Positions 14,413 to 56,200 of a stretch of DNA of 59,125 nt are shown piece after piece; position 1 is the first letter of the stretch, and the number at the start of each line of letters is the position of its first letter. The DNA lies in the NCBI GenBank assembly GCA_964499705.1, contig CAZCME010000026.1, positions 1-59,125 of the forward strand, written 5' to 3'. The translations under genes and the position numbers were made by a program. This DNA comes from an uncultured bacterium. GTDB taxonomy: Bacteria; UBA8481. The notes beneath the pieces were generated by a model that saw nothing but the letters and a program-made list of their open reading frames with translations, was not told where the DNA came from and did no database searches.

Positions 14413-14426
14413 TGTAAGCGGTTACA
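14413..14426. promoter_or_regulatory. LacI-family operator O2 (TGTAAGCGGTTACA)
   Basis: Near-perfect palindrome, identical at 31367-31380 and 35142-35155. Confidence 0.85.
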
Positions 14427-14429
14427 TAA

Positions 14430-14866: not shown

Positions 14867-14892
14867 TCCCTGTTCTCTTATTATCTCCCGCA

Positions 14893-30203: not shown

Positions 30204-30220
30204 CGACTTCCGGCGACGAA

Positions 30221-31246
30221 TCACTCTGTCGGAATCCGCCGGACCGACCGGCCCTCGAAAAGGACGGGCGGTAGACGAAGCTCCAGATCGAACCGCTCGC
30301 TCACCGTCGCTTCCGCCACGGCTTCCCCGATGGCCGCGAGCGGCTGCGCAACCGTCGTCAGCGCGGGATCGAGCTGACGGGCCAGGAGCGTGCCATCGAA
30401 GCCGGTGATGGAAACCTGCTCGGGAATCCGGATGCCGCTCTGGGTGAACACATCGCACAGCCCCGCCGCCATGTCGTCGTTGGCGGCGACGATGGCGTCG
30501 GGAAGTTCGCCGGTCTTCACCCAGTGATGCGCGGCATGGCGACCGCCCTCCCGAGTGAAATCGCCCGCGACGATATCCTTCCTGTCGACTTTGAGACCGC
30601 GCTGCTTCATCGTCGCGCAGAATGCCGCGGAGCGTTCCCGCGCGTCCGACAGATCGCGCGGTCCTTCGACGAAGCCGATCCTTCGATGTCCATGCTCCAC
30701 AAGATGGTCGACCACCATGCGGATACCCTCCGCGTTGTCCACGCCAATGGAGCCGAATCCCTTCGCGATCTTCTCGCTGCAGACGACGAGGCCGCGGACG
30801 CCCCGATCGGCGAGAAATCCGATCCGTGAGTCATGCGTCGGGGGGCCGAGCAGAATGACGCTCTTGAAGATGAGACTCTCGAAATTCGCCGCCAAAAGCT
30901 CCAATGTCGGATCCAGAGGCGACGAGGCCGACGTGCGAGGAATGTTGAAGAGCGCGATGGCGTGACCGCGCTGCTTCATCGCGTCCTCGATTGACCGGAT
31001 GAGCGCATGATAGATATTGTTGAGAAAGAGATCCTCCAGGCCCGTCACGACCGCCGCCATGGGAAAGCGCGTGCCGCGGGAGAGATGACGCGCCGAGAGG
31101 TTGACGTGAAACCCGCGCTGCCGGACGATTTTCTGCACCTTGCGCCGCGTCTTTTCACTGACATGGGGATGGCCGTTCAGGACGCGGGAGATGGTCATCT
31201 TGGAGACGCCGGCCTCCCGGGCGATCTGGCTGATGGATCCGTTCAA
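30221..31246 (-). CDS. LacI/GalR-family transcriptional repressor, copy B (341 aa)
   Basis: Same motifs as copy A, with an identical HTH. Start set at TTG 31246 by alignment with copy A (both 1026 bp, same SD). The ORF-track extension to 31312 runs into the promoter. Confidence 0.95.
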   Translation of the reverse strand: MNGSISQIAREAGVSKMTISRVLNGHPHVSEKTRRKVQKIVRQRGFHVNLSARHLSRGTRFPMAAVVTGLEDLFLNNIYHALIRSIEDAMKQRGHAIALFNIPRTSASSPLDPTLELLAANFESLIFKSVILLGPPTHDSRIGFLADRGVRGLVVCSEKIAKGFGSIGVDNAEGIRMVVDHLVEHGHRRIGFVEGPRDLSDARERSAAFCATMKQRGLKVDRKDIVAGDFTREGGRHAAHHWVKTGELPDAIVAANDDMAAGLCDVFTQSGIRIPEQVSITGFDGTLLARQLDPALTTVAQPLAAIGEAVAEATVSERFDLELRLPPVLFEGRSVRRIPTE

Positions 31247-37834: not shown

Positions 37835-39274
37835 TTACATTCCTCCGGGATTCCGCACGGGCCGCTCCGTCGTAATGACGTCAACTCCGAGTCGCTCCAG
37901 CTCTTTGTTCACTTCCACGAGCATTTCATCCCACACCGGGAAGGGGCGATCGACGCTGCCGGCGAAATCGAAGTTGCGAATGACCTCGCTGCCGCTCATG
38001 AGGCGGGCCGCAATAATGACGGCCCTGCCTTCGATCCAGTAATCTCCTTCGATGCTGTAAAGCGCCTTGTCGCGAACAAGCGTGTGCAATCCCGCCTTGC
38101 GCCAGTCGTGGCGCAATATTTCCATGGTCGCCTTGCCGAACCAGTCCAGGTCCTCGGGGCCCGAGCGGAATATGAATTCCGCCGCATGAAGCCCTTTGCG
38201 CCCCTCGCCCGCCATGGGTCTCCCCGCCTTCGCGGGACGTTCCCCCCAGTCGATCGGGGGTCTGCCGCCGCCGAACTGATACGTCAGCGAGACGAGATTC
38301 TGATCGCCGACTTCTCCGAAAGGCACATACGCGTAATCGACCGCGATATCGTTCCAGTGAAACGCGGCGCCGGCGGTGAAGCCCGAACCGACATCGTTGG
38401 CGGAATTGAAGCCCGCCCTCACGGCGAATTGCTTCGGGAGAACCCAGACTTCTCCTCCCACCTTCGCCTCCACATCCTGATCCTTCACCCAGACGACATC
38501 GCTCGTGAGACCGTATCGGCCGCCGGGCGAACGATACCCAAGGCCAAGCCGGAGCGTGATGGGGAGTTCCTCCCTTTCCCGCACGAACTGGAGCCGGGAA
38601 CCGAGATTGGCGATGGAAAGACCGACGGTGAGTCCCTGCAGCGGTTGGTACCATTTGAGGCCGAGGTCGACCGCGCCCGCCGTGGCGCTGAAGCGATCGA
38701 GCTTTTCGTGCACGATCTTCACCGAGGCTCCGACGTCGAGAAACCGCGACAATGCCCGCGCATACGTGATCGAGCCCGCGATGTCCGATCCATCCGAACG
38801 ACCGAGAATCTGGTTTGCGACACCGGAGGCGATCGTCGTTCGATCGATCTCGCCCAGGTCCACGTACAAAGCATTCACTCCGAGGGCGGCATTCGTTCCG
38901 ATCGGCTGGACGTAGCCGATGTAGTTGTACTGGAGATCCTCGAAGAGCGTGTTGTGAAAGAACCCAACCTCGCTGCGGCCGTTTCTCGCGATGCCCGACG
39001 GATTGAAATACAGCCCGTACGCGTCGTCAGCCCACGCAACTCCCGCCTCCCCCATCGCCCCCTGCCGCGCGCCGACACCGAAGTTGAGGAATTCCGCGCC
39101 CGTGGAACCCGCGTTGGAAACGGCTTCCACCGGTCCGATCATCATCATGAGGCAGACGCAGAAAATGATGAGACAGAAGAGATGACCAGATTTGGAAGCG
39201 ATTGAAATCGCGGGGGGCGGGCAGACGTATTCAGGTCCCCTCCGGAGCTTCTTACTCCAGTCGCTCCTGGTCAC
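37835..39274 (-). CDS. PorV/PorQ-like outer-membrane beta-barrel with C-terminal extension, copy 2 (479 aa)
   Basis: NAGSTGAEFLNFGVGARQGAMGEA, YFNPSGIA, and DYAYVPFGEVGDQNLVSLTYQF; clear paralog of 14893..16239. GTG start after AAAGGGG; the exact start is uncertain. Confidence 0.88.
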   Translation of the reverse strand: MTRSDWSKKLRRGPEYVCPPPAISIASKSGHLFCLIIFCVCLMMMIGPVEAVSNAGSTGAEFLNFGVGARQGAMGEAGVAWADDAYGLYFNPSGIARNGRSEVGFFHNTLFEDLQYNYIGYVQPIGTNAALGVNALYVDLGEIDRTTIASGVANQILGRSDGSDIAGSITYARALSRFLDVGASVKIVHEKLDRFSATAGAVDLGLKWYQPLQGLTVGLSIANLGSRLQFVREREELPITLRLGLGYRSPGGRYGLTSDVVWVKDQDVEAKVGGEVWVLPKQFAVRAGFNSANDVGSGFTAGAAFHWNDIAVDYAYVPFGEVGDQNLVSLTYQFGGGRPPIDWGERPAKAGRPMAGEGRKGLHAAEFIFRSGPEDLDWFGKATMEILRHDWRKAGLHTLVRDKALYSIEGDYWIEGRAVIIAARLMSGSEVIRNFDFAGSVDRPFPVWDEMLVEVNKELERLGVDVITTERPVRNPGGM

Positions 39275-39314
39275 CGTATCCCCTTTATGCCTTCCACCTT
39301 CATATCGGCCGAAA

Positions 39315-40976
39315 TCAACGAATCACCATGAACTTCTTCACGACGCGTTCGCCGTTCGGAGCCCGGATGACGGCGATGTAGGTGCCCGACGCCACCTCCC
39401 GGTTGTCGTCGGCATGGACGTCCCACTGGACGCTCCCGCCCGTGTTCGTCGCGTGAATCGTGGAGACGCGACGGCCGGTCACGGTGAAGATGTCGATATC
39501 GACGGTCGACGTCACGTTCCTGAAGATGATGCCCGTCGTGTTGTCGCCCTTGACGAACGGTTGGCCCGTTTGCGGATCGTTGTCGTATGGAATGAACGGA
39601 TTCGGATAGATGAGCACTCCCGAGAGGTTAGACGCGGGAGCGGCTCCGAAGACCGCGAAGTCCGTGAAGTGGCGCGTCCTGCAACGGATCACGTTCTTCA
39701 CGGGATCGATGACGCAGCCTTCCATCTTGATCCAGGTGGAGGAATTCCTGTCGTAGTAATAAATCGCGAGGTCTTTCTCGGCCACGGTGAGGCCCGCATC
39801 CGAGTAGGGCATCTCCATCGTCACCCAGTCATCGAATGTCGATTGTCCATCCTCTCGTTCAAAGCGGCGGTAATACCCGTCGCCCGGAATGACAAGACCG
39901 CTTCCCGGCAGGGGCGGCGGCGCATCGGGCGAGGATGTCCGGAAGATCGTGATCCGGATCCACATCGTGTCAGTCGAACCCATGGCTTCCGGCGGCATCG
40001 CGAACATCGAGCCTTCGACGACGAACGCCGTGTCGGTCGTCCACTTCACGTACCGGTGACGGCGGACGTGGATTCCCTCGATGGGATCGTTCCATTCGTT
40101 GATCCAGGAATCGGTCGCATCCTTCACGAGCCTGACATAGGTCGGGCTCGGATCCGTCTCGCCATTCGTATTGATGCCGACGGCGCGCACATAATAAGGC
40201 CCGTCCGCAACCAACTCGGTATTCCAGAGAATACCCCAGTAGGGAGGCGTCGTGTCCGGATTGGCATCGCTCCAGAGAGCCGTGGAGCAAGGCATCCAGG
40301 CTCCCCCCAGAGCGGAACGATACTCATAGAGAACGGAGGCGAAGGAGTCGCTGTAACCGACGGAGACCGTGACGGCGTTACCCGCGATCCGGACGCCTTC
40401 GTTCAATCCGGAGAGCCCCGGCGAGAGCGATACGATCGACGTGAAGGGTTCCGAGGTGTCGGTCACGACAAGCGTGCATGTGGTTGTCGACTGGTACCCG
40501 TTCCTGTCGAAGGCGATGATGGGCAGAACGAAAGTATCGGCGAAGACGGTGGAGTCGATCGTCAGCGACAGATTCCAGATCGAATCGCCGGATGTGGTAT
40601 CGGGCGCGATGCCGTCGTTTCTCAAGCTTGTGGAATCGGACCTGCCCATCAGGGAGAGATGGACGAGCACGGTATCGACGCTTGTCGTGTCCACCGCGGT
40701 AACGGAAATGACGACCGCGAAGTTTCCGTTGGAGACGGACGAAGGCGTGGCCCTTGCCGAAAGAATATCGGGGCCGGCCGTGTCGTACACCACGGTCTGC
40801 GTATCGGCGGCGTTGGAATAAGACGTCACCGTGCCGATGAACGGGGACGAATAATCGATCTGGGCCGTGTTGGTGATCCATGTGTTGGCCGGTGTTGCGG
40901 CCGATGTGGGAAGTATCAGCGCGCAGAGCAGCAGCAGCGTTAGCGCCGCCATGCCTGCGAAGGCAAACTTGTTCAT
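39315..40976 (-). CDS. Secreted anchor-like protein (553 aa): N-terminal DUF11-type donor hairpin, Ig-like anchor module, T9SS type A-like CTD
   Basis: Signal peptide MNKFAFAGMAALTLLLLCALILPTSAA, then TPANTWITNTAQIDY...SNAADTQTV. The rest aligns with the C-terminal ~490 aa of giant B and ends IYPNPF...WDVHADDNREVASGTYI...VVKKFMVIR. ATG 41081 is an alternative start. Confidence 0.88.
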   Translation of the reverse strand: MNKFAFAGMAALTLLLLCALILPTSAATPANTWITNTAQIDYSSPFIGTVTSYSNAADTQTVVYDTAGPDILSARATPSSVSNGNFAVVISVTAVDTTSVDTVLVHLSLMGRSDSTSLRNDGIAPDTTSGDSIWNLSLTIDSTVFADTFVLPIIAFDRNGYQSTTTCTLVVTDTSEPFTSIVSLSPGLSGLNEGVRIAGNAVTVSVGYSDSFASVLYEYRSALGGAWMPCSTALWSDANPDTTPPYWGILWNTELVADGPYYVRAVGINTNGETDPSPTYVRLVKDATDSWINEWNDPIEGIHVRRHRYVKWTTDTAFVVEGSMFAMPPEAMGSTDTMWIRITIFRTSSPDAPPPLPGSGLVIPGDGYYRRFEREDGQSTFDDWVTMEMPYSDAGLTVAEKDLAIYYYDRNSSTWIKMEGCVIDPVKNVIRCRTRHFTDFAVFGAAPASNLSGVLIYPNPFIPYDNDPQTGQPFVKGDNTTGIIFRNVTSTVDIDIFTVTGRRVSTIHATNTGGSVQWDVHADDNREVASGTYIAVIRAPNGERVVKKFMVIR

Positions 40977-41077
40977 CCGGCCATCCCGCCGATTTCGGGC
41001 GCACGTATCGAGCCGGGTCCGGGACGCACGTGTCGCGTCCGTCTTCAAAGCCGTGTTCCGCACGGCCGGCGATGCTC

Positions 41078-41497
41078 TCATCGAGCTCGCTCCGCGGGAG
41101 CCGCCGGGCTGATCAAGCCCGGCCGGCTGCCTCGCTGGAGCATGCACGTCGGGAAGGAGATCCCGGGTGCCATCGATTCGATTCGACGCGTTCCACACAA
41201 GTGTGTTCCTATCAACGGATGCCGGTTCGCGGTTGCGCGGTTCGCCGCGGGCGTTCTTGCCCGCGTTGCCGTCGCCGCCGCCGCCGGATCCGCCTTCCGC
41301 ACAAATGCGTACCGCACTAGTGCGTCCACCTTTCGGTGGTGGAACCGTCGTGGTCCGTCCGCGTGTTGTCGGATTCTCATGGAGAGCAGTTCTATCTGCC
41401 ATCCCGATCGATCCTTCCGTGCCAAAGCACGGCCACGCGGTATTTCATTCGCGCGTTCATGGATTCGCTCCACCCTTATCCGGGCGGGCGCGGTCAT
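41078..41497 (-). CDS. Possible hypothetical basic protein (139 aa)
   Basis: Fills the gap in the operon on the same strand, and its stop overlaps an in-frame ATG (41081) of the next gene. No recognisable motif and only a weak SD. Confidence 0.3.
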   Translation of the reverse strand: MTAPARIRVERIHERANEIPRGRALARKDRSGWQIELLSMRIRQHADGPRRFHHRKVDALVRYAFVRKADPAAAATATRARTPAANRATANRHPLIGTHLCGTRRIESMAPGISFPTCMLQRGSRPGLISPAAPAERAR

Positions 41498-41513
41498 CGG
41501 CCTAAGCGGCCTC

Positions 41514-41531
41514 GGAGACGCAAGCGTCTCC
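41514..41531 (-). terminator. GC-rich hairpin GGAGACGC-AA-GCGTCTCC downstream of the DUF11 gene (no U-tract; pause or stabilising stem)
   Basis: Perfect 8-bp inverted repeat 48 nt after the stop codon. Confidence 0.45.
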
Positions 41532-41579
41532 CCGCGTATCCGTCCCTCTACTGCCAGGTGCGGAGCTCATCCTCCGGGC

Positions 41580-42623
41580 CTATTGGATGAAGACCCTGAA
41601 ACGCACGAACTTGTTGTCTCCGGCCGCCACCTGGTTCTTGATCCATCGAACATGAGTGACCGTGCCGCCTGCGAATGTCGTCAGATTGGTCCAGTCGCCC
41701 GATGTGAACGAAGCGCTTGGATTGGCCAGCGTCGACACCTGGCAGATGAATCCTGCGTTGGTATCCGTCGCATGAAGCGTGGCGTCCGCGCCGAGCGTGA
41801 ACATCGAGTACGACGCCGTATCGAACGTGGTGTTCGCCGGAATCGTGTCCCGAATAATCACGGAATCGGCGGATGCCGTTCCAATGTTGTTATATGTCAA
41901 CCTGTAGGTGATTCGGGCGCCCGGTATCGGAGCGCTGGGATTGATGCCCATCGAAACGCTGTCGACGATCTTGTTGAGCGTCAGGCGCGCCGCGGCCAGA
42001 ACGGCGCCGGCAAATTCGTTCGAACCCGCTCCGCCTTCCGCGTACAGAATCCCGTTGTCACCCGTGTATTGTCCGGTCGAGTCGGCGGTCCCGACATTTC
42101 CCTGGTAGATTTTCAGTCGAAAATCCGCCCGGGCCTGATCCGGCGAATTGGCCGGCGTCGAGTGCGCCCAGATGGCGACGGAGCATTGCTTGGAGCCTCC
42201 TGCCGCCACGGTCGCGGCCGTGGTCCTCGTGTCCGCAAGCGCCCATGTGGAATCGTTGTCGACCCAGAGCTGGAACGTCCAGCCCACGGCGCCGTTGTTC
42301 AACGTGAAGCTGTCCACTTCGATCTGGAACGTATCGGCCCTGTTTCCGGTGTTATAGAAGGTGTAGGTGAAGATCTTCGTCTCACCGATGGAAAGACCCT
42401 GCGTGTCGATATTGCTGATGGTATCGCCCGCGATCGCCCTGACCGTCGTGTCTATGAACAGCGTTGTCGTTTCCTGGGCGTTGCCATTGACGTTGTACGT
42501 CACCTGCGCCCGATTGCTGAGTGTCGTGCCCGAAACCGTGCCGTTGGCGGAGGCGCGGGTCGGAAAGGCGATGAGCGCCAGCAACACCGCGCCCATGCTC
42601 CATGTCAGTCTGTTGAGATTCAC
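41580..42623 (-). CDS. Secreted DUF11 (conserved repeat domain) protein, candidate major pilin (347 aa)
   Basis: GTG start after AAGGAG and a signal peptide ending ASA. N-terminus GTVSGTTLSNRAQVTY. C-terminal LTLNK...PIPGARITYRLTYNNIGTASADSVIIRDTIPANTTF...VRWIK...VRFRVFIQ*. Confidence 0.88.
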   Translation of the reverse strand: MNLNRLTWSMGAVLLALIAFPTRASANGTVSGTTLSNRAQVTYNVNGNAQETTTLFIDTTVRAIAGDTISNIDTQGLSIGETKIFTYTFYNTGNRADTFQIEVDSFTLNNGAVGWTFQLWVDNDSTWALADTRTTAATVAAGGSKQCSVAIWAHSTPANSPDQARADFRLKIYQGNVGTADSTGQYTGDNGILYAEGGAGSNEFAGAVLAAARLTLNKIVDSVSMGINPSAPIPGARITYRLTYNNIGTASADSVIIRDTIPANTTFDTASYSMFTLGADATLHATDTNAGFICQVSTLANPSASFTSGDWTNLTTFAGGTVTHVRWIKNQVAAGDNKFVRFRVFIQ

Positions 42624-42712
42624 AATATTCTCCTTATCGAATCGATGTTTATCCGTTATCACGGGCTCCGGCCCCTCGCGCGGAATCCGTTGCTTCTATG
42701 GTTTGATCGTCA

Positions 42713-44251
42713 TCACCTCCCGATACCGATTTGCGTCGACGCCACTTTCGTGTCTACGGCCGTCCAAACTTCATGAGCCTCCAGCTCGGCGAGCTGAACA
42801 AACCGCCACGCCGGAGTTTTCGTGAAGTACGGGCTCCCTTTCGGGATGAAGATCATCAGATATCGGATGGGCATGGACGCATCGACCGCGATCGCGACGC
42901 GCTTCAACGGATCTCCTCGCGTCGATCTTTCATCGGCGCCGGCGCCCGCATCGATCCCGAATCCCGGATAGCTCCAGTTCACCGTGTCCCGCGCCACCAT
43001 CACGTAATAGCTCTTCGGATACGCATTGCCCCGCCAGACGGTCTCCACGGATGTCAGCAGTTTTTCGGAACCGAGGTCCACGAGCACCCACTGGTCCGTG
43101 TCGGCGGGATCCGAGGAGGTTGCCATGCCCGTGAAGTAGTCGTTTCTGCCATCCGTGATTCTCTCCAGCGCGGGCCGCTTGCTCTCAACATATTGCTCGT
43201 CCGTCAGAAGCGCGAAGGAGCCCCAGGCGCGCGCGCCGACGGCGATGTTGTTCGCGAATGTGGTGAACCGGAACCACGGGGTCGCCGTTCCGTGACCGGC
43301 GGAATCTTCGGTGACGATCTGGTATTCGTACGCCGTCCGCGGCAGAAGGCCGCCGAAATCGGCGACGAAGGAAAGCGTATTTTCCTCCACGCGTGCCGCG
43401 GTCTTCATGAGCCTGTCGCCGCCCGCCTCACGCCACTCCATCCAGGCTCGGCAGGGCACATTCGCGGAGAAGCGGAAGAGAGCGGAGTCGCGGCCGAGGA
43501 TATAGCGGGGATTCCAGGTGAAGGGATAAGGCGAGCCCTTCGTGCGGAATTTCAGGGGCTTTGAATCGCTCGATCCCAGGTCCTCGGCGGTGAGAATCCA
43601 GACGTGATAGTCGGAGCCCGGCATCAGGTTTTCCAGCCGCGCCTCGTGATCCATCACCATCTCATAGGACGGCGCCGACTGGGATTTCATCCGGTCTGCA
43701 TTCAGGCCGTAAAGGATCGACGTCTTGACCGGCATCGTCGTCTTCCACCGGATCACCGCGCTCTTCTCCTCGATCTCCGCCGTCTCGATCGCGTAAACTT
43801 CGGCCGTTGACGCATCGGCAGGAATCAGGCGGAGCTCGCTCACTTGGAAATCCGGATCGCTGAATTCGATGGTGACCATGGCGGCGCGGGCGACCGAGGG
43901 AGCAAATTCAAGCGAGGTTCGCTTTCCATCCGGTGTCATCGATGGTGCCACCGTCGGCTGGCTCCATGAGACCGCATCCTTCGACAGGCTCACCGTCACC
44001 CGCGCGGGCGCGCCCTGGCATTCGAGCTCGACGCCCTTCAAGACGGCTTCGTTCTGAAGGAGAAGGAAGAGCTGAAGCGGGGAGGAATCTGGACGCGCGG
44101 CGGTGGAAAAATCGCCGTCGTGAATACTCGCCAGCTCGCGGCCGTTTCCGGACACGGAGAAGGGCACAGGGAGCACAACAGCGGCGTTCGCAAAGGCAAC
44201 GTCGGCGAAGGGCAACAGGCAGAGAGCGCAGATCCAGCTCATTCTCTTCAT
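42713..44251 (-). CDS. Secreted discoidin-FN3-FN3-discoidin protein (512 aa)
   Basis: Start MKRMSWICALCLLPFADVAFA at 44251 has an ATGA overlap with the giant C stop. Motifs SAVIRWKT...HEARLENLMPGSDYH, GLLPRTAYEYQI and ITDG...DQWVLVDLG...PKSY. Confidence 0.85.
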   Translation of the reverse strand: MKRMSWICALCLLPFADVAFANAAVVLPVPFSVSGNGRELASIHDGDFSTAARPDSSPLQLFLLLQNEAVLKGVELECQGAPARVTVSLSKDAVSWSQPTVAPSMTPDGKRTSLEFAPSVARAAMVTIEFSDPDFQVSELRLIPADASTAEVYAIETAEIEEKSAVIRWKTTMPVKTSILYGLNADRMKSQSAPSYEMVMDHEARLENLMPGSDYHVWILTAEDLGSSDSKPLKFRTKGSPYPFTWNPRYILGRDSALFRFSANVPCRAWMEWREAGGDRLMKTAARVEENTLSFVADFGGLLPRTAYEYQIVTEDSAGHGTATPWFRFTTFANNIAVGARAWGSFALLTDEQYVESKRPALERITDGRNDYFTGMATSSDPADTDQWVLVDLGSEKLLTSVETVWRGNAYPKSYYVMVARDTVNWSYPGFGIDAGAGADERSTRGDPLKRVAIAVDASMPIRYLMIFIPKGSPYFTKTPAWRFVQLAELEAHEVWTAVDTKVASTQIGIGR

Positions 44252-47200
44252 TGCACGATCACCCGGTACCGGATGACGGCCTGCGGTTCGCCGGCTGTCA
44301 CGAGAAGCTTTCTCCAGCGAACATACCGGACCGATGACGGTACGCCCGGCACGCCGGACGTGTAATCGGCGGAATAGAAACTCTGGTCGGGCGCCGCAAT
44401 GGTCGCATACTGGAACTCCCAGCCGGCGATGTTCGTCACCGTGTCGCGGAACGCGGTCGTCGTGGCGACGGTATCGACGACGATGACCGAATCCGCGGGC
44501 GACCAGCCCGCATTCTGGAATGTGAGCGAATACTGGAGCGTCGAACCGGGGTAAGGGCCGAAGGATGTCGAATCGAGAGCTTTCGTGATCGTGAAGGTCG
44601 TGGCGGCAACACCTCCGGCCGAATCGGACCTGTTGCCGTTGGAGTCGACCGCGTAAACGAAGAAGTAGTACGTCTCCCCAGGCAATACCGACGTGTCGAT
44701 CCGCGAGGTGTCGATGATTATACCGTTGAAGAGGAGCGTCGCTGCAGCGAGAGAATCGTTTGAGCCGTGACGGTAGACGCGATACCCGACGAGATCCGTC
44801 TCCGTGTTGTTGTTCCACGAAATCCGCACGCCGGTTTCACCGAGGATCGCCGCGACCGCGGTGAATCCGGTCGGCTTCGCGGGTTTCAGAGCATCCGCGA
44901 CGAAATATGACGAGTCTCCGAATGCCGTCCAGTTCCCGGATGGATCGTAAGCGGCGACGCGCCACCAGACCCGTCCGCTCAGGTTGAACGGCGCCTGCGT
45001 CTCGTTCGTGTTTGTCAGATGCGCGCGCCAGATCGTCATGCGGAAGTCCGAGTCCGTCGCCAGTTCGAGATAATACTTAACCGTCCCATTGATGTCGGTC
45101 GTCGCGGCCCAGCGGATGTTCGGCCGCGTCCCCGTCTCCGCGCCGTACGCGGGCTGCTGCGTCGCAGGCGCCGCCGCCGGATCCGTAACGTCTCCCTCCA
45201 CCCACTGGATGTCATCGATCAGAAACGCGCCGGAACAGGTCGAAGCGGCGCCGGCCACCGCGAAGAGGAAACGGTTGAATCTCGTCTTGTCGAATCCGAG
45301 CGCGGTGTAATCGGCGAGCGGTATCCGGACACGGCGCCAGTCGGGACCGAGGTTCGGAATATAACTGTTCAGGGAAAGCGCCCACTCCGTACCGTTGCCC
45401 GCGTGCCGCACCTTCACGTCCATATTGCCCCAGGAGTCGGGGCTGGCGCTCGTGCCGGTCTCAAGGCGCACCATCATCTCAAGCGCGGCCGCGCTCGAAA
45501 CATTCAACGCCGGATAGTCGAAGATCATTCCCTGCCATCGATTCGACGAATTGTTGATGCTGTAATCCATCCGCAGGGATCCCGCGCCCGCGTAATGAAC
45601 CGAGGTTTCCTGCCGGAAGGGCGGATTCGCCGCTTCGGAAAACGGGGTCGCGGTCGTTCCATATGCGGTGGTCGCGATCGCGGTGTCGTTGAAGACTTCC
45701 AGAACGCATGTGTCGATCTTCTTCATGAAATTGATATGATCGATATCGATCACCGGACTGGTCGTCCCGCCGTATACGGCCGGATCGTCGTACAGGAACG
45801 CCATGTTCGAATCTCCGAAGATAAGATCGCACTGCGTCCAGGCCGCGAGCGGGATTACGACTTCCTGCCAGCTCGTCGTCGCTCCGCCGGAAGAGAGGAA
45901 CTTCCATACATCCACCTTCTGATTGCCGCCGGGTCTCGGTAGCTCCAACCGAAGAATGTCGCCCGGGGTACCGTCGCCCGACCGCAGGCCGAACGAGATC
46001 GCGCGGTAGAAGTCGGTGGAATCCGCCAAATCGGCGCCGCCGCCGCCCGGTACAGTGATGTAGCCTCCGAAGGATCCGCCGGGCACGGAACCGGTGATGC
46101 GGAGGAAGTTGCCGCCGTCCTTCGGATAGAGCGGCGCGTCGGTGCGGTTTTCGAGCGTGATGGCCGCGCCGCCGTTTTCGAACTTCGACGTGTCGCCGTT
46201 CCATAGATTCTTAGCCCGGACCGTGTTGAAGTCATCCAACACGCGCATCTCCACTTCCATCGTGTCCGATCCCGGTGTCGTCGCCCAGTTGCTGACATGG
46301 TCCTTCGCGGACACCTTGTAGCGGTTGAAACCGACGCGGCCGATCGCCGAGTCGAACGTGCTGCCGAGCGCGGAGTCGTTGATCGCGTTGTCCGCCACGT
46401 TCGTCGATGCGTTCACAAGCTCGGTGCCGGCGCCGGAATCATTGTCGGCAACGGCCCACGTCAGCCATATTTCACGGTCGTTATCGGTATCCGTCGGCGC
46501 GTCGGCGGTCGTGTCGCGCCGCGAGTTGACGTTCGTGAGAATCGGCCCATAGCGGTCCTCGATGAGCTTCACATACACGGTGTCGTACCGGGTTCCGGTC
46601 GTGTCGTACAATGCGAGTTGCCACGTCGTCTCGCCCCAGAGAATCCGGAAATTCGAAACTTCGAAGTTGAAGACGAACGGTGTCGTGATATCCGTCTGCG
46701 GGCCGGATTCGAAGATGGATGAAGCGACCGCCCTCGCGGCTCCGCCGGAGGCCACGACGGTGCATGTCACGATCACGGTCTCCGCGCTGTTCGTCCAGAC
46801 CGTGTCCGCGGGACTCGCCGTGCCTGTGTCGATCGGTCCGGTGCCCGCGTAGAAATACGACGCGGCCGCGCCCGACATCGTGATCGTCAGAACGTCCGGC
46901 GTCACTACCGGAGTTTCCATGGCGATCGAATCGGAATAGAAGGAGGAATTTTCGTAAGGAGCCGTCGTGTCGACGGCGGCGACGCGGTAGTGATAGACCG
47001 TGTCGTTCTGGAGCCCCGTGTCCGTGAATGCGAGCGTCGCCGCGCCGACCGCTCCACGGAGAACCCACAACGTCGTATCGCGATTCTGCGAACGATAGAC
47101 GCGGTACCCGCCGAGCGATACGGCCGCTTCATTCTCCTCGGACGTCGTCACGGGCTTCCATGTGACCGTGATCTGCGTGCTGTCATACGATCGCGCGGCC

Positions 47201-50200
47201 ACCGTGTCAGGAGCCCGGGGCGCGACCGTATCCGCCGAGAGCGACGTGTCAGCCGCTCCGAGTCGCCACGCCGCGTATACGACCGTCAACCTTTGCGCTC
47301 CGCCGATCCGCTGCAGGATCTTAGCGGAATCCGTCGTGCTCCAGTACTGCCGCGTCGCCGTCACGTCGGCGGTATCCGTGAAGAGCCCGTTCGTATCGAT
47401 CGCGCCCGCCGACGGAACGATCGTATTCTTCTCCAGCACGTTTGCTTTCGAGGACGCGTCGAGATAGAAGCCCCAGCCGGCATTCGAGTCAGCTTCGTTC
47501 TGGACGAAGCGGTTGAACGACGATCCCAGCGCCTTGAAACCCGCGGCGCGATTCTGCCGCGCGATGCCGCCGCGGACGACGTTGTTGTCCGATCCGGTCG
47601 CGCCGTTGTTCTGGAAGAGGAATCCGTCGTTCGTGCTGCTGTCCGCCGAACAGGCGATGACGAAATTCACGTTCGAACCGTCGTAAAAGAGGAAGCCCAC
47701 GTCGCTGTTGCCGCGCGCCGCGCACGAGGTGATCGTGCAGCCCGTGGTCTGATCGAGCATGAAACCGTCGTTGGCGTTCACCTCGGACGTGCAGGAATCC
47801 AGGCGGGTGCCCGTCGCCTGTTTCAAGTAGAAACCCTGGAGCGCGCTCGACCGGACGCGAAGGTTCGTGAAGGTGTTGTTCGTCGCGCCAAGGTTTCCCT
47901 CCACGTAGACGCCCACATCACCGGCGCTCGTCACCGTCAGATCGAGGAAGGTGTTGTTCGGGCTCCTGACGTTCACTCCGCGCCAGACAGGCGACGTGAT
48001 CCGGATCGTCTCGATCGTGTTCGCTCCGCTGTCGGCGATCCAGAGTCCGGCGCTCGCCCCCCCCGTCGTCGTGCAATAGCCGAGGCGATTTCCCGAGGAT
48101 GTTTCCGTCAGCGAAATTCCGCTCGCGAAAACGCTCTGAGCCGCCGTGCAATTGGTGAGCGTGTTCTGATGCGCGGCGACGAGAAGGAAATTATCCTGGC
48201 CGGACCGGTTCGCGGAGCACCACCGGAACGTGTTCGTGTCGGCGCTGTTATGGATGCTGAAGCCGCGATTACCGCAGGAATCGACGAAGTTCGTGTCGTA
48301 GATTCCATACCGCGTGTTGTCGACGTCGAAGCCGTCGTTGGAAGAATAGCGGACGAGATTGGAGCGGAACGTATTGGAGTCGGCGTTCGCCCGGACGAGG
48401 AAACCGTCCGTTCCCGCCGAATCGACCTGGTTCGACGTGAAGACATTCCAGCTTGTCCCCGCGTCGGAAATATAAAAGCCCTGGTCCGCCGTTCCATTGC
48501 CCGTCGTATTCGAGGTGAAGACGTTGCTCTTCGATGCGCCCGTCACCGCGTACGCCGCCGTCGCGTTCGATTCCGAGCGGTTCGACGTGAACGTGTTCGT
48601 GTCGGAACCGATGACAGAGAACCCTTCCGCGCGATTCGAATAGGAGACGCAGGAAAGAAACGTGTTGAGATTCGCCGCGCTGATCACGTATCCGAGGCTC
48701 GTGTTCGTCTCCGATGTCGCGTTCGAAACCGTGGCGTATCGCGCGCCGCCGAAGTAGAAACCGGCGTAGCCGCTGCGAGTCGCATGGCATCGGTCCATCG
48801 TCCATGAATCCGATCCGCCCTCCAGAATGAACCCGATGTTGCCCGTTCTCTGGGCGCGCACGCGGAGAATCGACCCCGTGTCGGCCGTCGTCACATAGAC
48901 GCCGTTGTATCCGTCGCGGACCTGGAAGTCGGAGAGATAAACGGCCGACGTCGTCGAGCAGTGGAGCGACCGGAAGGAAGCGACGGAAGAATCGAAAAAG
49001 TTGATGACGGTGAGGGAGGAGTCGACGCCCTGGATCCAGAGGGGCGAGACCGTGATCCGGACCGTGTCGGGAGGAGCGAACGCTCCGGCGTCGATGAGGA
49101 TCGTGTCGCCCGCGGAGAGATCCGCCACCACGGCCTCGATCGTCCGCTTCGGCGCGGCGGGCGTCAGTCCCGAGTTCGCGTCGTTGCCGACCGCTCCGGT
49201 GTACGAATCGCTGGCATTGTATGTTCCGTCGTTGACGTACCATTTGTTCGGCCCGGAGATCGTGACTGCGGCGGCGGACGGGACCGAGTCCGAATAATAC
49301 GCTTCGTTCAGGAACGGCGACGCGTTGTCGAACGCCGTGACGCGGTAGAAATATACGTCGTTCTCCACGAGGCTCGAGTCCGTGTACCGCGTGTCCGACG
49401 CGGATACCGTGCCGCGGAGTATCCAGTAGGTCGTATCCGAGCTCTTCGCTTGATAGATGCGGTATCCGGTCACATTCACCGCAAACGGATCTCCCTCGGC
49501 GTCGGCCGTCACCGGCGACCATGAGACGCGGATCTGCCCGGCGGAGACGGCGGTTACCGAATCCGGAGCGCGCGGCGCGACCGTGTCCGATCCGAAAGTC
49601 GTATCGACCTCGCCCAATCGGTAGGGCGGATACACGAACGTCGCCGCCTGAGGACCTTTGAAGCGCGTGGAGAAGACCGCGGTGTCGACGGAGCCCCACC
49701 AGTTTCGGAGCGCGTTCTGGCCCGCAAGATCGGTCCAGACCGCCGTGTCTCCAGCGGCGCCTGTCGGGAAATTATTCTTCGCGATCGTGTTGCCCGCGGA
49801 ACCGGAGTTGACGTACAGACACGCTTCGATACTCGATTCCATCTGGTTCCCCACCAGGACGTTGTTGTCCGAGTTGATCAGCTTGAAACCGCTCTTGCGG
49901 TGATTCCTCGCGAGATTTCCCGAGAGATAATTGTTGTCGGAACCGGAGCCCCCGTTGTCGATGAGGAGGATTCCGTCCGTCGTGTTCGTCTCGGCCCTGT
50001 TGCGCGACAGGATATTCCAGGTCGCCCCATAAAGGAGAATGCCTACGTCCGCGTTGCCGCTCGCGACATTGGCGGTCACGGTGCAGCCGACGGTCGAGAG
50101 CATGTGGATGCCGTCGTCGCCGTTCCCGGTCACAGTGTTGGACTCGAAGATCTCGCCCGTGCCCGAGACGGCCTGGATGCCGATGTTGGCGCCGTTGGAA

Positions 50201-53200
50201 ACCGTGTTGGAGACGAATCGATTCGTGTCGGACCGGACGGCGCCGTCGAAGTGCGCGCCGACGTCCGTGGCTCCAGTGATGACGTTCCCCATAAACGTGT
50301 TTCCCGGCGTCCGGACCGCGAGCCCCCGCCATGCGGGCGAGATGATGCGGTTGTAGTTGAACGTGCCGAAACCCAGGTCATCCAGCCAGAACGACGGTCC
50401 GCCTTCGCTCGTCGATGTGCATCCGTACACCGTGTTACGGATAGATGTGTTGACGAAGCTGAAGGCCGCGCTGTTGGAGACGGCCGAAGTGCAGGAGAAG
50501 ACGATGTTCGAGTCGGCATCCTCGAACTTGTAGTTGTCGGCACCCGTCGATCCGTGCGATCCGCACCAACGGAAGACGTTCGTATCGGAATTGGCTCGCA
50601 CGTAATAGCCGTATCCGGTCGGACGATAGACATAGTTGGTGTCCAGGATGCAGCGGCTGGCGTCGTCGAGGTCGTAACCGTCTCCGGCGGGAGTATCGAC
50701 GCGGTTCTGACGGAGTATTGTGCCTTCGGATTTCACGTAGAATCCGTCGGCATTCGGATTGCGAATGACGCTTCCCGTGATGATGTTGCCCTCGCCAGCG
50801 TCGATCCAGAATCCCTGGCCGGTATTCCGGGTCGATCGGTTCGAGGTGAAGACGTTGGACGAGGCGCCCGTGATGATTGAATACGCCGCCCAGAGATTCG
50901 TATCCGCGTCGTTATCCTCTGCGAGATTCTGATTGGCCTGGCTGAACCAGAATCCTTCCTGCGTGTTCGAGTCGGCACGGTTGGACCGGACAGTGTTCGT
51001 ATCGGAGAAATATCCCACAGCAATGCCCTTGATGTTGAAGAAAGAATAGTTTCCGACAAGCGTTGCGAACTTTGACGTGGCGACCATGATGCCCCAACCG
51101 TTTCCGGCGCGGTTGCCGTCCACGTGGCAGTTCTCCACGCGCCACGAATCCGAAGCGACCTCCAGGAGTATCCCGACCTCCGCGTTCGAAGCGCGCACCC
51201 GCTGCACGACACCCGTGTCGCCCGCGACGGAATGAATTCCGCGATAACCGTCGCGAACCCAGAGATCCTGGATCCGGACGAAGCTGCACGGCGTGTAGAT
51301 CGAGTTGAAGCTCGCCTGTGTGGAGTCGTTGAAATTGATGATGGTCTTCGCCGAGTCGACACCCTGGACCAAGACGATGTCCGTGTCGATTCGCACCGTA
51401 TCGGTCGGCGAGAATGTTCCGGCGTCGATATTGACCGTATCGCCCGAAGTCAGGAACGGGAAAACGGCCGCAAGCGTCAGCTTCGGCAGCGCGGGCGTCA
51501 ACCCGGAGTTGGCGTCATTGCCGACGGCGCCCGTGTACGAATCGCTCCCGTCATACGCGGCATCGTTGATATACCAGGCGTTGGGCACAAGGGTGTCGAC
51601 GGTCGCAGCGGCGATCGCGCTGCATTTCGTGTCCGCGTAAAAGGATTGGTTGTCGTACGGCGAGCTCGTGTCGAACGCGGTTACTTTATAGAAGTAGCTC
51701 TCGCCCGAATTGAGACCCGAGTCAACGAAGGAGAGCGTGCCCGCACCCAACGTCGCGCGCAGATACCAGAGCGACGTGTCGGGATTCTTCGCGGTCCAGA
51801 GCTTGTATCCGGCGAGTTGTACCGCGAAAGGATCGCCCTCTTCGTCGACGGTGACAGGGTGCCACGTAATCGTGATCTGCGTGGACGCAACGGCCGCGCA
51901 GGTATCGGGTGAGCGCGGCGCGACGGTGTCGGCGCCGGCGGTCGTGTCGATCAAGCCCAGCCGATACGGAATGTAGATCGCGCTGCCCGCCGCGCCGCCC
52001 GTGATCTTCGACCGGACGACCGCCGAGTCGGTCGTGTTCCAGTAATTCCTCGATATATCCATTCCGGCAGGCTCGACATTGACGCTGTCGGCACCGGTCG
52101 CGTTCGGGATGATGTTGTTCTTGGCGAATATGCCTCCGGTCGCGGCGGCTTCCCAGTAGACGGAATTCATGGTGTTCGATTCGAAACGGTTCGCCACGAC
52201 GACGTTGCCGGTCGAACCGCCCTGGAGATAAATGCCGCGCTGCTTGTTCCAGCGGAACGTGTTCCGCTCCAGACGGTTCCCGGTCGAGATGTCGAATCGG
52301 ATGCCGTCCTGGGCGCTCGACTCAATGAGGTTGTCCTGGAAGACCTGGTTGTTGGCGGCCGTCACGAGATGCACGCCGTTCTGCTGAGTGCGGCGGAACG
52401 TATTGCCGATGATCGAATCGTTCGTGGAACCGTTGATCTGGAGATTGTGCTGAAGCTGGGAATCGACGAAGTTCCAGCGGACGTTGGAATAAGACGAGCC
52501 GTTCGCGATCTGGATGCCGATCTGGCCGCAATTGTCGATCGTGTTCGAATCGATACGGTTGAATTTCGAATTATCGGACGCGATTCCCATGAACGTGCTG
52601 TATCCGACGTGATTCGAGAGAATCGTGTTCGTTTCGGCGCTCGAATTCAGCAGGATCCCGTGCGCTCCGGCTTTGTTGACATGGCTGTTCTGGACGAGAT
52701 TCCATCGCCCGGTCACGACGTTGATGCCGTGATTGACGGGCGTGTCGATCCAGCACCGGTCGACCGTGTTGTAGTCGGAGCCGCCGTTCACGAGAATGCC
52801 GATGTTGGCCGCGTTCGTCACGCGGACTCGTTCCAAGGAACAGAAGTCGGAGAAGGAAAGACTCACGCCGATATTCGGCGCCTTTACCCAGAGATCGCGG
52901 ATCGTGACCGTATCGACGGAGATCGCGATATTGGCGGACGCCGTGAAGCTGATGACGGAAAGTGCCGAGTCGACGCCGATCAGGAAGACGCCGGTGTCGT
53001 CGATGTCAAGCTGCGCGGCGCGCGTGCATTCGCCGGCGTCGAAGTAGACCGTGTCGCCATTCGAGAGAAGCGGTATGACGGCGCCGAGCGACCGTTTCGG
53101 CTTGATCGGCAGGAGCCCGTGGTTGGCGTCGTCGCCGATGGCGCCGGTGAAGGAGTCGCTCGCGTTGTACGCCGAATCGTTCACGTACCACTTGTTCGCG

Positions 53201-56200
53201 ACCGCGGCGGTCTCGATCGTGACGAGCGTTGTGTCGGTTCCCCACGTCGTGGTCTCGTAGACGATCCGCAGCGAGGCCACGCCGAGATCGGTGCCGAACT
53301 TGATCGTTGTCGAGCAGACGCCGTTCGTGAAAGCCACCGTCGAAATATTGATGGTGGGTAATCCCGTTGCCGTGATCGCCACGCCTGCCGCCGTAAAGTT
53401 GGTGACCGTGTCGCCGCGCGCGTCGACGGCAAGAATGCGAAGCGTGCGGGATTCTCCGAACTCCACCGTGTCGCCCGGACCGGTAAACCGGAACCGCATG
53501 TTCGGGTTGGAGTCCTGATTAGCCGCGGGTCCCGGCGTCCATCCCGGACTCGGCTTGATGTTGTTCCGGAAAACACCTGCTCCGTCCCAGGCCCGGATGT
53601 AGGACGAATCCTCCAGCGTCCCGGGGAAGGCCACGTCATCGACGGTGTCGCCTCCGTTGTTCATGAGAATCATCCGGCCGCCGCCGTTATTCAGGTCTCC
53701 CATGAATCCAGACGTGCACGTGAAGCTATTGATCGCGGCGCTGTTGGAGTCGAAGATGTATGCGCCTCCGTTGTTCGCGGTCCTGTGATAGAGCACCATG
53801 TAGCCGCGCGGAGGAATCGTGTCAGAAAGCAGCATCTTCGTCGCGCCGGTGACTCCTAGACGCCACGACGAGAGCGGCGCGGGAGAATCGGCGCGGTTGA
53901 AAAGCTCGACCCACTCGTCCTCGTTTTCCTCGGGAGAAACAGGCGCGCCGTCCCAGTCGACCGTGCCCACATTGACCATGATCTCGTTGATCAGAACCTG
54001 CGGGACGGGGCCAACCGTGAACTCGGCCCGACCCGTCTCCCCTGTCGTCGCTTCCGTGGCGGTCAGCGTGTCGAGCCCATTTGCCGCGCCCGAGAGCGTC
54101 AAGGTCGCGGTGATCTGTCCCGAGTCGGACGCGACAAACACGGCGGACGTCGGAGAAATCGATCCGCCTGCCACCGTGAAGTTCACGGTTCCCGTATAAT
54201 CTTCCTTGCGAGCGCCGTTGATCGTACGGGCGATGATCGTGACGCCGAATTGGTAGTCGTTGGAAACCTTGGATGGAGCCGTGACATCGAAGTGATGGAG
54301 CGGTCCTGGCGTCACGGCGATAGCGCTTGACGTCAGGTTCCACGAAACCGCGGTGATTGTATCCACGGAACTTGTCCCCAGCCACCGATGCCCGTCCTTC
54401 GTTCCCGTCTCCGTCGAAAGAGCAACGAAGATTTCCTGGTTGTAGATCCGCGACCCATTCGCGGTCTCCCACAAGGTCAGGACGATTCCCGTGTCATCGG
54501 TATTCGACCTCAGCTTCACCGTCGTCACGCCGCGTTGCGACCCGTTTCCGCCGCCGGTCGCGGAGACAGTCACGATGAGCCGCTCACCAAGACCCACCGT
54601 GTCCGTCGAACCGGTGCTCGATCGGAGCGTCACGGTCACGCCGGTCAGGTTGGTATCGATCAATCCATTGTCGAACCCTTCCGTGTATGTGTTCGTTTCC
54701 GTTGCTGGAGCCGCGGCCCAGTCCAGGTTCGAGAATGTCGTATCGCGGCCGTTGTAGCCGCGGAAGATCGAGCGTCCCTGCAGCGCGGTGGCATTCGTGG
54801 CGTTGTGATCATAATTCTCGTTGTCATTCCAGATCTGCGCACCCACCGCGTCGGAATCGTCGCTGGTGTTGGTCGTCGCCGTGTTCTTCCACATGAGAAA
54901 CGAGACGATCGTGGAGGAATCAAGCGTCGTGGAGGCGTAGAGACCCATCGAACCCGCCTGGCCGAGCCTGTTTCCGAATGACGCGAAGGGGAAGACGTGC
55001 GCCGCGTTGTCCGTGTCGGTGAAAACGGTCTCGTGCGCGCCGCTCTCGCCGTAATGCACGACCAGGTGCTTGCCGGACGGGATCGATACAGTCGGGAGGA
55101 ACGTGTCACCGGTGCTGTAGTCCGTAATAAACCATCCGGCGGTCGAAACAGTCCCGGTCGATCGATTGTAGATTTCCACCCATTCGTCGCGGTCCGCGCT
55201 CGAGGGATTGACGACGTCGACAGGCAGTATTTCGTTGATGATGAGCCTATTGTCGAGAAGCGGATAGACTACGACCGTGCCGGTGAAACCCGACGAATCT
55301 GCCGTGATCGTATCCGCGCCGACAGCTCCGCCACCGGAGATCGTGACCGAACATGTCGTGTCGCCGTTCCACGCGGATAAGAACGGTATCGTCGTCGGGG
55401 AAATCGTTCCCTTGGCGACGGACAGCGTCACCGTGTCCCGGAACGAGGTGACCGTGTTTCCATCGAGGTCCCTTGCGATGACGCGGAGATTAAACGCCGT
55501 GCCTCGCTTGACGGTGCGCGATTGAACGAGGAGCACAGGGTCGGTTTCATACACATCGAAATGATCCACGACGCGCTGCGCGCGAAATTCGATCTTCGTC
55601 GAGGTTTCGGAATTGAGCCCCGGGTCGTAAGAGACGATCCGGACCCAATGCGATTCCTCCGAGAGGTTGCCGATCGTCAACCATGTGTTGTACGTGTACG
55701 TGTCAACGACGATGTTATTGAAGAGCGAATCGACGCGCGTGACCTGGACGCGGTACCGCACCGGCGGCGTCGAGTCCGTTGACGCAGTCCACGTGCAGCC
55801 GACGGCATTGAAGACCCATGCGCCCGCGGCAGGCGCGGTGATGACGGCGGCGGTCGGAGGAACGGCGGTCTGGACGGTCAAGGCAAGAATTCCGTTAATG
55901 GGGCCTGGCGCCGTCGTCTCCGTGCCATACGTCGTATCCGCAGTCACTGTGCAGGCGCCTGTGAACCCGGTGATCGTCACGGATTCCATTACCATCCCAT
56001 TGCGCGTATCCGTTGTGGAATAGGTGTTGAACGTGTCGGCCGTCGTCGTGGGATTGATCGTACCCTGCGAAATCCTGAGGCGCGCAAATCCCGTCATGCT
56101 CGCCGCCGCCGTGTCGGATACTTTTCTCCCGAACGTGTCCTGCGCCGTTATGTGCAGCGAGAATGGCACTCCTGTTTCGACATACGTTCCCGACAGGCAC

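Follow-up and report, generated by a model that had tools for sequence, protein, structure and literature searches.

A DUF11 (CLIPPER) domain divided among neighbouring proteins of a UBA8481 bacterium: a candidate plug-and-socket surface assembly

Why should two proteins of one gene cluster each stop partway through an immunoglobulin-like (Ig-like) domain, and why should two of the mature proteins encoded there begin with what looks like the missing piece? The question is raised by a 59,125-nucleotide (nt) stretch of DNA from an uncultured bacterium of the lineage UBA8481 (GenBank assembly GCA_964499705.1, contig CAZCME010000026.1; this whole contig, from a draft genome of 4.67 Mb with 96% completeness, is the window analysed here). 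Open reading frames (ORFs) on the minus strand throughout encode, in this order, a giant protein (giant C), a secreted protein of 511/512 amino acids (aa), a 347-aa protein, a 553-aa protein and an outer-membrane barrel, with a spacer between the 347-aa and 553-aa genes. A preliminary description of this locus had proposed that a DUF11 fold is split across tip, shaft and anchor proteins, with giant C as acceptor only, the 347-aa protein as donor and acceptor, and the 553-aa protein as donor only, carrying a sorting-type C-terminal domain (CTD). That division of roles is what we find: giant C and the 347-aa protein end in the first seven strands of the domain (the socket), and the mature 347-aa and 553-aa proteins begin with the last two (the plug). 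The earlier account made no mention of the identity of DUF11 with the CLIPPER domain, of the division of an isopeptide triad between plug and socket, or of the spread of the arrangement beyond the phylum, all of which are added here. The parts of the cluster are these:

44248..59124, minus strand: giant C (ORF, more than 4958 aa, start beyond the contig edge)
44602..59124, minus strand: body of giant C, a putative distal adhesin (ORF; about 310 N-terminal residues lie beyond the contig)
44251..44601, minus strand: C-terminal socket of giant C, CLIPPER/DUF11 strands 1-7 (TIGR01451, unit hidden Markov model (HMM))
42713..44251, minus strand: secreted protein of 511/512 aa in which F5/8 type C and FN3-like domains are recognised (Pfam matches)
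41580..42623, minus strand: 347-aa protein (ORF)
42432..42545, minus strand: plug of the 347-aa protein, its mature N-terminal strand 8-9 hairpin (hhalign, unit columns 86-119)
41991..42431, minus strand: middle Ig-like domain of the 347-aa protein (hhalign and AlphaFold2 (AF2) model)
41583..41990, minus strand: socket of the 347-aa protein, CLIPPER strands 1-7 (hhalign, unit columns 1-85)
40977..41579, minus strand: non-coding spacer of 603 nt between the 347-aa and 553-aa genes (RNA folding)
39315..40976, minus strand: 553-aa protein (ORF)
40788..40895, minus strand: plug of the 553-aa protein, its mature N-terminal strand 8-9 hairpin (hhalign, unit columns 87-118)
39318..40787, minus strand: anchor body of the 553-aa protein, Ig-like domains and a type IX secretion system (T9SS)-type CTD, the CTD at about 39318-39569 (identity with giant B, TIGR04183, PorZ model)
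37835..39274, minus strand: outer-membrane barrel of the PorV/PorQ family, 479 aa (NF033709)

Giant C and the 347-aa protein end in ...VIRYRVIVQ and ...FVRFRVFIQ, respectively, and their C-terminal domains are 34% identical to each other. The 347-aa protein scores above the cut-offs of both DUF11 models (PF01345, 26.6 bits against 24.6; TIGR01451, 41.4 bits against 24), and giant C passes that of TIGR01451 (27.7 bits against 24) and fails that of PF01345 (19.1 bits against 24.6). The Pfam alignments of the two domains reach only profile positions 4-72 and 4-54 of 114. Because such a partial alignment alone is no proof of truncation, we built a canonical DUF11 unit of 119 columns from 45 units of multi-repeat proteins and compared family profiles with it by profile-profile alignment (hhalign). 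Positions 186-321 of the 347-aa family, final residue included, correspond to unit columns 1-85 (probability 98.3, E 1.6e-14), and positions 1-38 of its mature N-terminus, which in the 347-aa protein begins NGTVSGTTLSNRAQVTY... after the signal peptide, correspond to columns 86-119. The N-terminal 40 family columns on their own score 28.6 (E 9e-6), a value equalled by none of 200 column shuffles (mean 8.5, maximum 14.7). The 553-type N-termini (n = 6, the 553-aa protein and five orthologues), beginning TPANTWITNTAQIDY...SNAADTQTV in the mature 553-aa protein, score 28.9 on columns 87-118, again equalled by none of the shuffles (100; maximum 25.9). Plain HMM searches place residues 323-346 of the 347-aa protein on unit columns 61-84, its residues 28-44 on columns 87-103, residues 25-43 of the 553-aa protein on columns 85-103, and residues 4845-4895 of giant C on columns 4-52. 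Both C-terminal domains end at column 85 of 119, right before the stop codon, and neither holds the complete nine-strand domain in one stretch; the missing piece, which an alignment to the DUF11 HMM had been proposed to reveal, is the strand 8-9 hairpin. Chance likeness is unlikely, since only two of 23845 six-frame ORFs of at least 90 aa in the whole genome match the unit HMM, and these are giant C and the 347-aa protein. As aligned, then, the sockets of giant C and the 347-aa protein are DUF11 strands 1-7, and the plugs of the 347-aa and 553-aa proteins are strands 8-9. The domain between plug and socket in the 347-aa protein, a complete Ig domain, is itself weakly DUF11/CARDB-like (positions 41-135 on unit columns 3-93; hhalign, E 1e-4) and lacks the Lys/Asp pair discussed next.

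DUF11 was renamed CLIPPER in a 2025 survey, which assigns it a CnaA-like Ig fold of nine strands (PMC12617251). In the CLIPPER structure 9IFR an intramolecular isopeptide bond joins Lys715 to Asn806, with Asp748 as presumed catalyst, and in CnaA-like folds generally the bonded residues lie on the first and penultimate strands (PMC12617251). The canonical unit carries its triad at K7, D41 and N96, in agreement with the spacing in 9IFR (33 from K to D and 91 from K to N; PMC12617251). In the cluster these residues are present, as aligned, and shared between the pieces, Lys and Asp in the socket and Asn in the plug. The 347-aa protein has Lys218 (41970-41972) and Asp259 (41847-41849) in its socket and Asn37 (42513-42515) in its plug, giant C has Lys4848 (44581-44583) and Asp4884 (44473-44475), and the plug of the 553-aa protein has Asn36 (40869-40871), the Asn being kept in all six 553-type hairpins. 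Across 29 sequences of the 347-aa family, down to 21% identity, Lys, Asp and Asn are invariant (alignment A3); the HMM alignment of the same members aligns Asp in 29/29 and Asn in 28/29, the remaining Asn being left unaligned by the HMM. Such a division of the triad would allow a covalent joint, in which Lys and Asn, once docked, probably become linked autocatalytically by an isopeptide bond. Searches of solved structures by sequence gave 0 matches at E <= 1 with the 347-aa family profile, 9IFR not being retrieved, and 0 matches with a multi-repeat DUF11 protein.

Each of the three roles can be checked against relatives or paralogues. The N-terminus of giant C lies beyond the contig, and its acceptor-only role was therefore checked on the orthologous ORF of a relative (6238 aa), which starts with a signal peptide, lacks the hairpin motif, and reaches the beginning of the known giant C sequence about 310 residues from its own start. 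For the 553-aa protein the comparison is provided by a second giant within the window, followed by a barrel of its own:

16236..30458, downstream of the cluster: giant B, 4740 aa (ORF)
14893..16239: second barrel, after giant B (ORF; 50% identical to the barrel at 37835..39274)

Residues 55-553 of the 553-aa protein correspond at 38% identity to the C-terminal 492 residues of giant B (4249-4740), where this anchor-like body is fused behind FN3-like repeats and no hairpin is present, which supports the 553-aa protein as a detached anchor. Giant B's homologous first anchor domain does without the hairpin, which therefore belongs outside that domain. The genome holds seven paralogous anchor modules (giant B and six others). 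Each of them begins its match at residue 100 of the 553-aa protein or before it and runs through to the end, and none of the seven covers residues 1-54.

The genes also keep company in relatives, as the synteny check proposed for this locus had called for. Among five genomes of the phylum (inventory of giant sockets and 347-aa genes at E <= 1e-5), a 347-aa gene is found in four, including all three of high quality, and the genome without one is 86% complete; the close family of the 347-aa protein comprises eight proteins of 45-100% identity. The order giant, 511-aa, 347-aa, 553-aa, barrel is retained at two related loci, L001 and L003 (the four-gene order at 40-58% identity), and a third, L002, has the 347-553-barrel part. 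L002 and L003 carry a second 347-553-barrel module that has no giant. In the inventory, two of the four genomes have a single giant socket and a single 347-aa gene (in this genome and one relative, each part is present exactly once), and the other two have one giant socket, two 347-aa genes and two 553-aa anchors. In these last two genomes plug-only proteins outnumber socket-only proteins, so that at least one anchor plug could pair only with a 347-aa socket. From the sequence, the core-facing residues of the plugs are L/N/A/V/Y in the 347-aa protein and I/N/A/I/Y in the 553-aa protein, near enough to identical that one socket could accept both.

How would such parts fit together? On balance we favour, if only by a modest degree of confidence and on the strength of the sequence comparisons above, a plug-and-socket surface assembly in which the pieces of the split CLIPPER domain dock in trans and a CTD and barrel provide the anchor. 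The plug of each protein would complete the socket of the next protein outward, giving a chain giant adhesin <- (347-aa)n <- 553-aa anchor, in which n is 1 or more: the 553-aa plug would fill a 347-aa socket, and the 347-aa plug would fill the socket of giant C or that of another 347-aa protein. Once docked, Lys and Asn would bond autocatalytically, making each joint covalent without a sortase. Since the 553-aa protein has no socket, it would terminate the chain, and its uncleaved T9SS-type CTD would bind the adjoining PorV/PorQ-like barrel and so fasten the chain to the outer membrane. As a guess, giant C, the 347-aa protein and the 511/512-aa protein might cross that membrane by hitch-hiking on the anchor CTD after docking in the periplasm. 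That socket-only and plug-only proteins exist as neighbours argues for docking in trans.

The anchor proposed at the base has precedents: PorZ and PorU retain their CTDs, with PorZ sitting on PorQ (PMC10947112), and type B CTD proteins bind PorP-like barrels (PMC9143113). Of the T9SS-like CTD and PorV-like barrel named in the preliminary description, the barrel holds up well, matching NF033709, the PorV/PorQ family model, over positions 1-326 of 326 (170.7 bits, cut-off 90, E 5.7e-50) and having an additional domain at its C-terminus; as putative receptor it would bind the 553-aa CTD at the membrane. The CTD half of the claim fares less well, its scores lying below family cut-offs as given in the next paragraph; against the C-terminal region of PorZ the CTD scores 34.1 bits, over the last 93 model positions only. 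A canonical T9SS is not evident from the genome sequence, and 'T9SS-like' is accordingly to be read loosely. Nineteen of the 23 PorV/PorQ-like barrels in the genome lie directly after an ORF with this type of CTD (for example 14893-16547 and 37835-39647), which makes the CTD and barrel the organism's standard surface-anchoring cassette; many of the CTD ORFs that precede barrels are giants of 1700 to 9700 aa. These pairs of a CTD and a private barrel look like an anchoring system outside Bacteroidota.

Several observations weigh against the assembly as drawn. The 553-aa CTD scores 20.9 bits with TIGR04183 (cut-off 23) and 15.1 bits with PF18962 (cut-off 27). Genome searches for T9SS components gave an SprA-like ORF at 97.8 bits, under the cut-off of 200, only CTD-like matches, and no catalytic part, for PorU, a 34-bit partial match for GldK and no match for GldL or GldM, the last being weak evidence because the controls were without a T9SS. 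None of the 347-aa protein, giant C and the 511/512-aa protein carries a CTD or has an evident way through the outer membrane. Covariation is no help either: plug-socket pairs make up 3 of the top 40 by mutual information with average product correction (131 members, 39 effective sequences), against 3.0 expected. Finally, the AF2 monomer of the mature 347-aa protein (mean predicted local distance difference test (pLDDT) 86.9, predicted template modelling score (pTM) 0.70, middle-domain strands mostly at pLDDT 88-95) folds hairpin residues 8-34 as strands at pLDDT ~91, which fits a self-closed monomer. On the other side, the plug of the 553-aa protein, modelled as a monomer and so without a socket, is a coil at pLDDT 22-27, which speaks for docking in trans, although this contrast is confounded by the shallow alignment of 7 sequences behind that model (overall mean pLDDT 58).

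The arrangement is not confined to this phylum. Relatives of 320-357 aa have the same plug, middle domain and socket and end in ...F.V.I[DN] at the stop codon (16 of the best 150 representatives). Membership was confirmed for 434 of 597 metagenome stretches, and at least 2620 of 8000 scored proteins are relatives at E <= 1e-15, named only 'hypothetical' or 'uncharacterized repeat protein'; the hosts of this set are mostly proteobacterial (Steroidobacteraceae, Pseudomonadales and others), and an Atlas cluster of relatives counts 4792 members. In the conserved distant operon a gene for a protein of ~335 aa is followed by one of ~380 aa, each protein with plug and socket. Next comes the gene for a protein of ~2000 aa, which has a signal peptide and a plug at its N-terminus, a long barrel-like region at its C-terminus, and also a complete DUF11 domain and an OmpA-type domain (PF00691, 42.8 bits); this protein may be both base and export pore. 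By a strict plug regular expression, which undercounts this operon as it misses the variant plug V.RN.GSV, 41 of the 52 loci that extend at least 900 nt downstream have a second plug-bearing gene there, and 22 of the 34 that extend at least 2600 nt have the long plug-bearing gene; in five of six exceptions inspected the long gene is present with the variant plug. Three consecutive plug-bearing genes occur in 18 of 26 loci of at least 11 kb, and one distant locus encodes a socket-only protein of 605 aa, in which a terminal socket and a complete DUF11 domain are joined by an additional domain at the N-terminus and a plug is lacking. As far as the sequences tell, the logic of a socket-only distal part, a plug-and-socket middle and a plug-only membrane part recurs here with a different base, and the near-universal presence of a plug-only base in this operon argues for docking in trans.

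Some further features of the distant proteins may be noted. The ~2000-aa base, encoded at 12851-18847 in locus L039 and with like proteins in L038, L051, L059 and L067, also contains an SdrD_B-like part; its C-terminal ~850 aa resemble a large barrel, and its OmpA-type domain is a peptidoglycan-binding domain. Comparison of the C-terminal 998 aa of the base with solved structures by sequence gave nothing meaningful. In the comparison with sortase pili, TIGR04226 gave only weak, sub-threshold matches, in the distant relatives.

Four other readings of the cluster have to be considered. The one that survives best is the case n = 1 of the assembly proposed above, a three-piece adhesin in which giant C, one 347-aa adaptor and one 553-aa anchor pair 1:1:1 in trans and form no filament. 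This genome and one relative, with exactly one of each part, are what it would predict, and it is easier to imagine the anchor's CTD exporting a defined complex than a polymer. We nevertheless consider it somewhat unlikely: the giant-less modules of two relatives make little sense if the 347-aa protein is purely a connector, the shared core residues of the plugs mean that a 347-aa socket should accept a 347-aa plug as well, and the long spacer after the 347-aa gene in all five modules (structured in the two that were folded) would permit unequal expression. The giant-less modules and the common plug core favour homopolymerisation, and the one-of-each inventories of two genomes do not; a true homopolymeric shaft, with n above 1, is therefore a tentative proposal that we regard as possible rather than probable.

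A second reading makes the 347-aa protein a circularly permuted CLIPPER monomer that closes on itself through an intramolecular Lys218-Asn37 bond, its middle domain bridging the ends, so that only giant C and the 553-aa protein pair in trans. With plug and socket in one chain this is kinetically the easiest outcome, and the confident AF2 monomer, with its folded hairpin, speaks for it. That model is not decisive, because AF2 monomers of true donor-strand pilins self-close too, as with the 'closed form' of TafA (PMC11821415), a precedent that cuts both ways. Self-closure is harder to reconcile with the two genomes, of four, that have two plug-bearing anchors and one socket-only giant, where one anchor would be left partnerless, and with the distant operons, in which nearly every long-enough locus has a plug-only base and a socket-only tip is seen in one. 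It also gives no reason for the linkage of 347-aa and anchor genes in every module, and we judge it rather improbable.

It is far less plausible still that no complementation takes place, the C-terminal domains being complete seven-strand Ig domains, the N-terminal segments the beginnings of the next domain and the likeness a functionless remnant. Some relatives of DUF11 do have seven strands, for example DUF7507 (PMC12617251), and the hairpin always stands ahead of another Ig-like domain. Yet the invariance of Lys, Asp and Asn in 29 sequences is inexplicable if plug and socket never meet, the split falls exactly at column 85/86, the homologous first anchor domain of giant B has no hairpin, and sockets and plugs are restricted to neighbouring genes. 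That a frameshift or misassembly broke one giant gene into four ORFs, as a draft contig past whose end giant C runs might invite one to suspect, can safely be set aside, since each downstream ORF has its own signal peptide and L001 and L003 preserve the order of the four genes at 40-58% identity, with L002 preserving the 347-553-barrel part.

The favoured assembly would amount to a donor-strand fibre with an isopeptide lock. In chaperone-usher pili the donor is a single strand, the joint is non-covalent, and a periplasmic chaperone and an usher are required. Their polarity is the same as that proposed here, with an acceptor-only tip, a shaft of donor-plus-acceptor subunits and a terminator (PMC11821415). 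Pfam and NCBIfam scans of the five cluster proteins found no usher, sortase motif or type IV pilus gene, in line with what had been noted for this locus, and no PapD-like chaperone or PapC-like usher, the rest of the genome not having been searched for the latter two. Type V pili (FimA/Mfa1) are built from lipoproteins with a trimmed N-terminus and a C-terminal donor, whereas here the signal peptides are of the Ala-x-Ala type without a lipobox Cys, the donor is N-terminal, and the Pfam scan of the cluster proteins gave no match to the FimA/Mfa family. Sortase pili depend on an LPXTG-type signal, whereas here the last socket strand forms the C-terminus of both the 347-aa protein and giant C, which have no sorting signal. 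SpyTag/SpyCatcher, SnoopTag/SnoopCatcher and isopeptag are engineered split isopeptide Ig-like domains whose pieces reconstitute and bond spontaneously. They separate the reactive partners in the same manner, one piece carrying one reactive residue and the other its partner and the catalyst, but were made in the laboratory from CnaB-type or pilin domains of Gram-positives and use a tag of one strand, whereas the pairs proposed here would be natural, CnaA-like and based on a two-strand tag.

Closer in fold is CLIPPER itself, where 9IFR belongs to the same family (PF01345) and has the same Lys-Asp-Asn triad, spacing and adhesin-stalk setting (PMC12617251). Structure 9IFR holds all nine strands and the bond in one chain, whereas here the domain is cut after strand 7 and the Asn hairpin is N-terminal in another protein or in the same one; the accessible part of the survey makes no mention of a split or intermolecular CLIPPER (PMC12617251). 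BsaA of Clostridium perfringens, of the TasA family, likewise inserts its N-terminus into the sheet of a neighbour and is locked by an autocatalytic Asn-Lys bond without a sortase (PMC11580942). It differs in having a TasA/camelysin fold, a one-strand donor and a catalytic Glu (N-E-K), as against a CnaA-like Ig fold, a hairpin and Asp (K-D-N) here, and in coming from a Gram-positive with SipW, for which the accessible part of the report gives no separate socket-only tip or plug-only anchor proteins (PMC11580942); the Pfam scan of the cluster proteins gave no match to the TasA/camelysin family. The archaeal threads of Saci_0406 are loosely alike, combining donor-strand complementation with a proposed spontaneous intersubunit isopeptide bond, which there runs from Asp24, through its N-terminal amine, to Asn57 in subunit n+2 in a protein without a Pfam domain, from an archaeon without an outer membrane (PMC9715654). 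For the anchor the parallels are T9SS CTD anchoring and the pairs PorZ-PorQ and SprB-SprF/PorP-like, in which a CTD protein is encoded beside the barrel presumed to hold it (PMC10947112, PMC9143113). These systems are from Bacteroidota, whereas the present cluster is from another phylum, has a barrel with an extra C-terminal domain and has a CTD that scores under the cut-offs. In the literature searched, outside which lie most subscription journals and supplements, neither a split CLIPPER/DUF11 domain nor fibres of this kind turned up, and TIGR01451 is mentioned nowhere.

If the joints form in trans, they would give outer-membrane bacteria a new route to surface fibres and giant adhesins that needs no sortase, usher or chaperone, possibly with a covalent bond at each joint, and the recently defined CLIPPER domain would gain an intermolecular role. 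Such docking would explain a large family now annotated as 'hypothetical' or 'uncharacterized repeat protein', could supply natural orthogonal two-strand tag/catcher pairs for protein engineering, and suggests how a 0.5-MDa adhesin without a sorting domain of its own may borrow one from a small partner. More speculatively, and with the same reserve as for a homopolymeric shaft, diderms of several phyla might build covalent fibres from split CLIPPER domains, a natural SpyTag/SpyCatcher, without sortase, usher or chaperone, using socket-only adhesins as tips and plug-only proteins as outer-membrane bases. This would be a new pilus class, covering thousands of unannotated genes, with a CTD and PorV/Q-like barrel as base here and the ~2000-aa OmpA-barrel protein as base in Pseudomonadota.

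The remaining parts of the cluster are of less certain relevance to the assembly. The 511/512-aa protein has Pfam matches to PF00754 (43.8 bits) and PF00041 (28.6 bits) and none of plug, socket or CTD; its gene is single-copy in the genome and is kept between the giant and 347-aa genes in L001 (40% identity) and L003 (48% identity). The ATG of this gene overlaps the stop codon of giant C (ATGA), and the protein is translationally coupled to giant C through that overlap. The second, giant-less modules (8942-11554 in L002, 15507-17625 in L003) lie directly upstream of ftsA/ftsZ-like genes, recognised from N-terminal sequence only. Downstream of the 347-aa gene, the 603-nt spacer has an RNA folding z-score of -7.36, with none of 20 shuffles folding as well; an Rfam search gave no match and a scan for terminator-like sites found none. 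A small gene hidden in the spacer was considered and rejected, there being no conserved frame and the sole match in a relative covering 33 nt. Spacers of 205-635 nt lie 3' of the 347-aa gene in all five modules (lengths taken by hand from ORF coordinates), and the second L003 spacer folds with z -5.4, RNA folding having covered two of the five. How much 347-aa protein is made relative to 553-aa protein may be set by this structured spacer.

Among the distant relatives, two loci have a small gene (an ORF of 180-230 aa) between the two pilin-like genes, at about 11070-11620 in L039 and at 10855-11544 in L051. Its product is a DUF11-like socket ending ...RFRA.. at the stop codon, with Asn at the position of the catalytic Asp, and may be a cap or a chaperone-like decoy. 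A metagenomic protein of 1335 aa (P0137) has an N-terminal plug, a C-terminal socket and an internal hairpin-like stretch ahead of a second copy of the middle domain. A profile check recognises its plug and socket and recognises neither the internal hairpin nor the domain that precedes it; P0137 may be a fused two-subunit form. The socket of the 347-aa protein (41583-42020 of the window, minus strand) also draws chance phmmer matches (E 4e-4 to 1) to framework 3 of antibody heavy-chain variable (VH) domains, through the pattern ...ADSV..R.TI.A.T..., a likeness that is an annotation trap for automatic pipelines.

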